Positions 31,429 through 46,879 of a DNA stretch of 64,000 nucleotides are shown piece after piece (position 1 is the stretch's first letter; every line of letters starts with the position of its first letter). The stretch comes from Octopus vulgaris (Eukaryota). The position numbers and the translations under genes were made by a program. Location of the stretch: the NCBI GenBank assembly GCA_951406725.2, contig OX597836.1, positions 38,812,001 to 38,876,000 of the forward strand, in the 5' to 3' direction. Below the pieces are notes generated by a model. It was not told the origin of the DNA. It searched no databases and saw only the letters and a program-made list of their open reading frames with translations.

Positions 31429-31627
31429 TTACATATACATATATCTAGGTGCGTGTGTTTTTATGTCTGCGATTGTCCCCCTCTACCGCTTAACAACCGA
31501 TGTTGGTGTTTTAAGTACCCGTAACTTAGATGTTCAGCAAATAGAGACAAATAGAACACAACGCAACGCCCGGCCTGGGAATCGAACTCACGATCTCACA
31601 ATCGTGAGATGCAACACCCTAACCACT

Positions 31628-31669
31628 AACTGTCCGACAAACGGGGACGTGAAACTTTGAGTAACAGTT
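31628..31669 (+). ncRNA. Hammerhead motif, probably inactive (G8A); same family as 46344
   Basis: AACTGT-CCGACAA-ACG(GGGA)CGT-GAAA-CTTTGAG-TA-ACAGTT. Confidence 0.55.
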
Positions 31670-31702
31670 TTTATGATAATTTTACTACTTTTTAATAAAG
31701 TA

Positions 31703-32100
31703 TCGCAGGAGTGGCTGTGTGGTAAGTAGCTTGTTTACCAACCACATGGTTCCGGGTTCAGTCCCACTGCGTGGCACCTTGGGCAAGTGTCTTCTACTAT
31801 AGCCTCGGGCCGACCAAAGCCTTGTGAGTGGATTTGGTAGACGGAAACTGAAAGAAGCCCGTCGTATATATGTATATATATGTATGTGCGCGTATGTTTG
31901 TGTGTCTGTGTGTGTCCCCCTAGCATTGCTTGACAACCGATGCTGGCGTGTTTATGTCCCCGTAACTTAGAGGTTCGGCAAAAGAGACAGATAGAATAAG
32001 TACTGGGCTTACAAAGAATATGTCCCGGGGTCTAGTTGCTCGATTAAAGGCGGTGCTCCAGCATGGCCGCAGTCAAAATGACTGAAACAAGTAAAAAGCA
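31703..32100 (+). mobile_element. SINE family A, full length
   Basis: Co-linear with 36752-37155. Confidence 0.92.
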
Positions 32101-44407: not shown

Positions 44408-44856
44408 GTATATGCACACCGCATACAAGAACTGGCATGTGAAGAGAGATGGAGAAAATCATTGTATGGAATTATTGACTAACTGTGAACCAGTCATTAT
44501 TTCTTGTTAAGATGGCCATCCTTCCCTTTCAAAGCTGCCAGCATAAGTAGTGTTTAATTGCGAACCTTTTGCAGTGTTCCTTGTTTCATGCACGCCAAGA
44601 ACTAGGTGCATTTTTATTGAGCAATTGTTGAGTGGCATAGATGCATTCTATTGAAGTTATTGGTTAATCTCAGGCAAATGAGAGAATGCTGCTTTTCAAT
44701 AACATCGGTCAAAAGACGACCATTGAACAACTATGTTTGTATGTTTTAAGTATTTAGGCAAAGGAATGCTGCTCACAAAATATGTTGGTTTCAGGTGGTT
44801 TCAGGATATCAAATGCTATTAGAGGGCAAATGGAACGGAAATAGAATATCTGTGGA

Positions 44857-45747: not shown

Positions 45748-45790
<43 letters not shown>

Positions 45791-46102
45791 ATAAGACCGT
45801 TATTTAAAATAACGATCCTATCAAGTGGTGAGCATGGAAAAGAAAGAACTTATAGTTAATAATTATTATTAAAATTATAATTAAGGGTATCTAAGAGACA
45901 CCACCATACTTGAAATAGCAATTAAAACCTGATTCTAAAACCACATCGTGTATTCATACAGCACAAGTTGAAAAGATAGATAGACATATAAGCCAGTAAA
46001 ATATTACCGAATAATCCCAAATCCAGATTGCTGGCTCTGCATAAAAATATACTTTATCTTCTTCAGTGAGATATACAAAAAAATTGTGCATAATTACACA
46101 CG

Positions 46103-46177
<75 letters not shown>

Positions 46178-46248
46178 TCACACACACACATACACACACA
46201 CACACACATATATATGCACTTTATGAAAAAGCAGCAAAAAATCACAAA

Positions 46249-46290
46249 AACTGTTACTCAGAGTTTCACATTCCCGTTCGTCGGATAGTT
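46249..46290 (-). ncRNA. Minimal hammerhead motif (U4C)
   Basis: Reverse complement AACTAT-CCGACGA-ACG(GGAA)TGT-GAAA-CTCTGAG-TA-ACAGTT. Confidence 0.6.
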
Positions 46291-46343
46291 TTGTTTAGAA
46301 TAGTGAAAATCATTGTATAGAATTATTGACTAACTGTAAACAA

Positions 46344-46385
46344 AGCTGTCCGACGAACGGGAACGTGAAACTCTGAGTAACCGTT
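46344..46385 (+). ncRNA. Minimal hammerhead motif (U4C)
   Basis: AGCTGT-CCGACGA-ACG(GGAA)CGT-GAAA-CTCTGAG-TA-ACCGTT. Stem II is GNRA-capped, stem III ACTCTGAGT is near-palindromic and the triplet is GUA. Confidence 0.65.
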
Positions 46386-46486
46386 TTTGTGATATTTTTG
46401 CTGCTTCTTTAATAAAGCATATTACTCTACCTCTGGTATTCAAGTACTATTTTTTCCACCTTGTTTCGCATTTATCTGCTTACTCT

Positions 46487-46528
<42 letters not shown>

Positions 46529-46585
46529 TTTGTAATTACTTTGCCTTCTTCAGTGAGATATACAAAATATTGTACATAATTACAA

Positions 46586-46629
<44 letters not shown>

Positions 46630-46879
46630 TCGTGATTATGTACAATTTTTTGTGTATCTCCCTGAAGAAGGCAAAGTCTACTTTTATTCAGAACCAGAAA
46701 TTCGCATTTGGGATTATCAAGTAATTTTTTACTGGTTTATTTGTCTATTTATTTTGTCAATTTGTGCTGTATGAATACACGATGTGGTTTTAGAGTCAGG
46801 GTTTGACTGCTATTTCGAGCGTGGTGGTATCTCTTAGATACCTTAATAATAATTTTATACATACATACAAATATATATT

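Follow-up and report, generated by a model that had tools for sequence, protein, structure and literature searches.

Locally copied DNA between the two arms of a Penelope-like retrotransposon insertion in Octopus vulgaris

Within a 64,000-nt stretch of Octopus vulgaris DNA (hereafter the window; assembly GCA_951406725.2, contig OX597836.1, positions 38,812,001 to 38,876,000), a two-armed Penelope-like insertion carries between its arms a filler copied from flanking DNA, and this filler was probably (roughly 70%) laid down by break-repair synthesis while the arms were being joined. The filler is likely a repair scar because 14 other insertions of the same family show the same local capture, and likely a dead-end one, with no sign of spread or function. 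Fillers of local origin are already known from LINEs; new here are the kilobase range and the orientation bias across one family, and the addition made is a family-level test of donors with their distance, orientation, and side. Coordinates are collected in Table 1.

Table 1. Features of the insertion, its donor, and related sequence in the window
Feature	Position in window	Strand	Remark
Short arm, inverted 5'-truncated pLTR	46213..46301	-	Outer end AATAAAG, adjoins (CA)n/(TA)n run
Letters belonging to neither arm nor donor (3)	46302..46304	.	Between short arm and filler
Locally templated filler	46305..46337	+	Copy of 44454-44486
Donor of filler	44454..44486	+	Both sides without Penelope-family sequence
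Direct arm, 5'-truncated pLTR	46337..46421	+	Both pLTRs of intact element L289 match it at 84%
Minimal type I hammerhead motif	46346..46383	+	Sequence motif
Tail, ~70 nt	46422..46490	+	Second fixed end, adjoining (TA)n
Host pair, older and inverted, from a second repeat family	45781..46857	.	Insertion sits in its central microsatellite
Single truncated family arm without tail	31628..31703	+	Starts AACTGT, lies between SINE pieces

Filler and donor agree at 32 of 33 bases in the same orientation on sequence comparison within the window, as the initial annotation had reported, and the match extends to 35/37 by adding AAC past one mismatch. The donor had also been described as non-repetitive, and a pattern search of the 2.8-Gb genome for the 33-mer, allowing at most two mismatches and leaving the one differing letter open, returned two sites only, the filler and the donor. 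The locus itself was checked against a 95-nt contig of run X2 (study P2, a study other than that of run X1), which covers 46274-46368 with one other letter and outside the filler consists of the two arms. Since the 33-mer has only these two sites and a contig from a different study crosses the joint, the duplication is real and specific; an assembly artefact was ruled out by the same contig, and a constant part of the element or a common repeat by the genome count together with the survey of other copies described below. The filler does end in AACTGT (46332-46337), yet the proposal that the arm is joined at this hexamer did not hold: the stem I strand of the direct arm itself reads AGCTGT (46344-46349), and AACTGT is not shared junction sequence because six more letters (AAACAA) intervene. 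Exact overlap at the right junction amounts to one letter, the T at 46337 common to filler and direct arm, where TAAAC resembles the donor's TGAAC. No exact overlap is present at the left junction; ATGGA precedes the donor and the short arm would also continue as ATGGA, possibly a decayed microhomology. This weak overlap counts against microhomology-primed repair copying at the discovery locus.

Judged by sequence, the arms are the 3' end (a pLTR with a minimal hammerhead, followed by the tail) of a Hydra-clade Penelope-like retrotransposon, an assignment made by motifs, pLTR plan, and (TA)n target. Two young elements, L289 (C31:10144001-10149000) and L290 (C6:85260001-85265000), hold uninterrupted 727-codon frames between two direct repeats that are 83-84% like 46342-46485 (arm plus tail). 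The encoded motifs are RWK, DKT, YRDD, a CxCX5C linker, CxxC, and CxH, which in L289 take the forms RWK, DKT, CNCKNESSC, CRLC, and CRH; a Pfam search of the intact ORF matched no family, so the RT and endonuclease domain calls rest on motifs. Several more long open frames were found. Members of the family follow one plan, in which an inverted short arm running to AATAAAG is followed by a direct arm and a tail of ~70 nt, with outer ends at TA/CA runs (134/161 scored ends on the short-arm side and 152/163 on the tail side), and a (TA)n target is accordingly a feature of the family. The tail runs on toward the ORF start in intact elements. Longer single copies extend upstream through ~1 kb of non-coding sequence to the end of an ORF, and 11 of 30 ORF-end loci have an arm downstream on the same strand; single copies end at either of two fixed outer places. 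A decayed family copy is itself interrupted: in L258 (C2:60844301-60850300) the intruder is another Penelope-type RT with a long frame and a GIPKIHK motif, and in L208 it is a LINE.

An inverted truncated copy with a tail is the typical Penelope footprint (PMC8557442, PMC3846280), and the Hydra clade of EN+ Penelope-like elements is characterized by this motif set together with hammerhead pLTRs (Craig et al. 2021, PMC8557442). Both features of EN+ elements are present in the octopus family, namely an inverted 5'-truncated copy with a one-armed tail and an ORF, with RT and C-terminal endonuclease assigned by motif, flanked by arm-like pLTRs. The likeness to the published clade extends to a single ORF with RWK/DKT/CxCX5C/CxxC/CxH, hammerhead pLTRs, (TA)n targets, and the inverted 5'-truncated copy plus tail (PMC8557442). 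In contrast, the tail is ~70 nt here and 30-40 nt in the published elements, older subfamilies here carry a CCGACGA core that differs from theirs, and local fillers, present here, find no mention in the available text of that report (PMC8557442).

The direct-arm motif consists of stem I CTGT/ACCG (one mismatch), core CCGACGA, stem II ACG-GGAA-CGT, GAAA, a palindromic CTCTGAG, and TA, in keeping with the minimal type I hammerhead with palindromic loop 3 described for pLTRs (PMC4209133). The minus-strand hammerhead of the short arm is decayed, and each arm at the locus combines one stem I mismatch with the CCGACGA core. The arms share 65/70 positions, more than either shares with any of 194 other copies; this closeness fits their origin in one event. 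An Rfam search of the window gave no hammerhead among the 150 matches listed of 196, those listed being microsatellite-driven or chance. Measured against the reference core CUGANGA...GAAA...UH, 292 parsed arms have CCGACGA in 136, CTGATGA in 57, and CCGATGA in 35, with stem I CTGT/ACAG in 222/292 and CTC-N-GAG in 274/292; intact young copies carry the canonical CTGATGA. Single arms are not predicted to fold as hammerheads by energy alone. The variant-core subfamilies have nonetheless made hundreds of insertions. Among the matches listed, both arms very often end 10-15 nt before the hammerhead core, the search pattern having required the core and so sampled only arms that contain it. These ends fall on or next to short palindromes (CTAG, TTAA), which yields hairpins with zero loop.

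Two-armed tailed copies are numerous, pattern counts being 562 (gaps 44-144), 77 (76-160), 204 (55-75), 94 (60-75), 29 (161-260), and 296 in the young subfamily. The sequence between the arms (the apex) was parsed at 191 different loci, among which long and foreign-looking gaps are over-represented. Element sequence with no foreign piece of at least 12 nt was found at 155/191; letters absent from real element copies numbered at least 12 in 36/191 and at least 16 in 28/191. In apices without foreign pieces, two arms truncated at different points form a hairpin, and some of these apices repeat bits of the element. Arm lengths vary, so that constant arms with locus-specific spacers, once suggested as the family's rule, are not supported. 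Head-to-head joins of 0-1 nt made up 6 of 17 parsed apices in a rough survey of 19 rows, and such joins would fit two-end joining better than a fold-back. Locally mapped fillers amount to ~1-3% family-wide by a rough hand count.

Own-flank enrichment of the spacers was measured on 91 loci for which 10 kb of flank was available: the insertion in the window, 59 loci picked by eye from their first 80 letters (one duplicate removed), 10 long-gap loci, 20 long-gap loci taken without picking for foreign look, and one young copy. Microsatellites were masked in the apices and family sequence in the flanks, and every apex was then scored against the full set of 91 flanks. In 16/91 an apex matched its own flank better than any other, against an expectation of 0.61 and a maximum of 3 in 300 permutations, which bears out the expectation that spacers would match DNA near their own insertion; without the discovery locus and L204 the count is 14/89, and an earlier version of the test gave 15/42 residuals against 65 flanks. 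Frequencies are rough because a majority of these loci had been chosen by eye for apices that looked foreign. One locus, L204 (= L171), was dropped as a tandem array, leaving 15 cases, and L157 matched locally only until its microsatellite was masked. Tandem repetition, flank included, of whole two-armed insertions or of single arms was seen at L119 (C7:67571393-67572367), L204, and L113/L114, in units of ~400 and ~180 nt, one duplicated 11 kb apart; L198 and L200 carry extra duplications of arm plus flank.

The 15 matches span 16-130 nt at 81-100% identity. Their donors lie 137-2505 nt away (median 863), none falling at 2.55-5 kb (P 2.6e-5 under uniform spread); orientation is the same in 14/15 (P 0.001), and the donor is on the short-arm side in 12/15 (P 0.035). 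One case, L355, belongs to the young subfamily with intact ORFs and was chosen before its flank was inspected. About half of the filler junctions have an exact 2-6-nt overlap, and two-step fillers occur at L115, L135, and L159; overlaps were read by eye because automatic lengths tolerate mismatches and come out too long. Marginal matches account for three of the 15 (L116, 39 versus 36; L135, 18 versus 16; L141, 18 versus 17), the long fillers L108, L121, L177, L188, and L191 have no convincing donor within 15 kb, and the SINE fillers L109 and L203 have ambiguous donors. The unplaced long fillers and the marginal matches count against the repair reading. Thus the pick-up of neighboring DNA proposed in the initial annotation stands, as does the commonness of short overlaps, while AACTGT as the guide does not.

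The sequence of events that we favor is as follows. The element's enzyme would cut both strands within a TA repeat and copy its own RNA from two fixed start points, one per side; both copies would break off soon after the hammerhead, so that two loose ends face each other head to head. These would usually be joined directly or via bits copied from the element, and in a few percent of insertions one end would first pair with flank 0.1-2.5 kb off through a few matching letters, copy 16-130 letters of it, and then be joined. Fixed but different outer ends, together with single copies ending at either of them, fit two primings, one per strand, as we infer by reference to the Poseidon element PAc, whose tail is delimited in vitro by two sites of RT initiation (Frangieh et al. 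2024, PMC11167929). The apex would then be the joint between two loose cDNA ends. Overlaps of 2-6 letters and two-step fillers fit microhomology-primed copying in rounds, and the same-orientation bias would fit either invasion of the duplex flank or copying from the strand exposed on the opposite side; same-orientation copies are what results when one end is extended along the other end's exposed strand (PMC7165422).

A bolder version, which we regard as doubtful, has an asymmetric intermediate in which flank on the short-arm side would be open for up to ~2.5 kb and the telomerase-like enzyme, not a host polymerase, would jump onto it, so that insertions would routinely make short local duplications of fixed polarity. 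That the filler was instead added after insertion, when the fold-back broke at its center and host repair patched it with local DNA, is unlikely. The arms are predicted to form a very stable hairpin, and mapped fillers seem commoner in older subfamilies (~9/279 by hand count versus 1/100 first-listed young copies), an excess that is not significant (P 0.47). Pooled divergence is equal between filler and donor (34/589, 5.8%) and between arms (51/911, 5.6%), as would suit capture during insertion or close to it. This agreement does not extend to single loci: the two divergences show no per-locus correlation, as later patching would allow. Against such patching, the young L355 already bears a filler, and old near-perfect fold-backs without filler persist in hundreds.

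We give rather little credence to a jump of the element's RT onto a nascent host transcript and back, or to its own copying of exposed flanking DNA. Penelope enzymes can act in trans on host RNAs, host DNA spacers occur in rotifer Pen1 (PMC3846280), and copies of 16-130 nt from kilobase range are atypical of polymerase theta (PMC11541566). An RNA template predicts either orientation, however, and the strong bias observed speaks against it, albeit not against an enzyme copying DNA. A dedicated system, in which constant ribozyme arms would capture host sequence and display it in a hairpin RNA, is highly improbable: local capture recurs across the family and the read-through RNA is predicted to be a long hairpin with the filler near its loop, yet most apices lack a foreign piece, arm lengths vary, none of the 15 fillers recurs among 195 apices, and the motifs of both arms are decayed. 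The display imagined in the initial annotation also fares poorly in the predicted fold, a single hairpin of -114.8 kcal/mol in which both hammerhead sequences pair with each other. Because the motifs are decayed, capture is rare, and fillers do not spread, a display role is unsupported, and the filler is better regarded as a by-product of insertion than as a new functional RNA system.

The proposed break-repair synthesis during joining of the arms shares features with several described processes. Extra nucleotides at LINE 5' ends include filler whose source is DNA close to the site (Yamaguchi, Kajikawa, Okada 2014, PMC4245944), and L1 has templated insertions from flanking DNA (PMC11702581; bioRxiv 10.1101/2024.08.27.596794); these are alike in being retrotransposon-junction filler copied from nearby DNA, whereas here the filler lies between two cDNA arms and comes from 0.14-2.5 kb, L1 templates being typically within 15 bp (bioRxiv 10.1101/2024.08.27.596794). 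Polymerase theta insertions likewise involve short overlaps, direct and inverse classes, and repeated rounds (PMC7165422, PMC11541566), but their templates peak within ~20 bp of the break in human cells (PMC11541566), their tracts are mostly short (<10-30 bp; PMC7165422), and direct and inverse classes are about equally used, in contrast to the single orientation that prevails here. In TMEJ terms, flank-copied inserts with short overlaps are seen in this family and templates within tens of bases are not, while the pieces of element sequence present at many apices are in keeping with a short range. Penelopes of Adineta vaga similarly have inverted pLTRs, palindromic joints, and host DNA captured by pLTRs, with spacers of 0.9-1.5 kb or whole genes and no local donors traced in the available text (Arkhipova et al. 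2013, PMC3846280). With PAc the family would share cutting and extension of both strands and a tail set by two RT start sites, the main template there being uncleaved RNA; that in vitro work, as available, includes no joining of the two cDNA ends (PMC11167929). A literature search for locally templated fillers in Penelope insertions, with supplements and subscription papers outside its scope, found none. As in vitro Penelope work ends at priming, the fillers bear on how insertion finishes; they can be read and mapped exactly because a two-armed copy has an arm to either side of the joint. Any mechanism must account for the numbers obtained from the 15 donors on distance, orientation, and side (break-type repair, ~2.5 kb reach, polarity), and the intact young elements in the genome make a cell assay possible.

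The host pair comprises 45781-46097 and 46630-46857 (84% alike) and an extra 47-nt copy of the inner end at 46538-46584; it is longer by ~90 nt on one side, and the repeat forms hairpin centers elsewhere (L215, L288). In appearance the pair is a further two-armed insertion of Penelope type, a resemblance in arrangement that involves no ORF link. The family copy at 31628, offered as a second case of local capture, does not qualify: the adjacent SINE-head piece lacks a close source nearby, since its best match in the window reaches 78-80% and the most similar of the fetched loci, at 92%, lies on another chromosome, and the SINE can supply at most one letter of AACTGT at that joint. At 31441-31629, two different SINE pieces in opposite orientation are joined at a common AGAA before the single arm, and this joint may be junction filler from a distant SINE.
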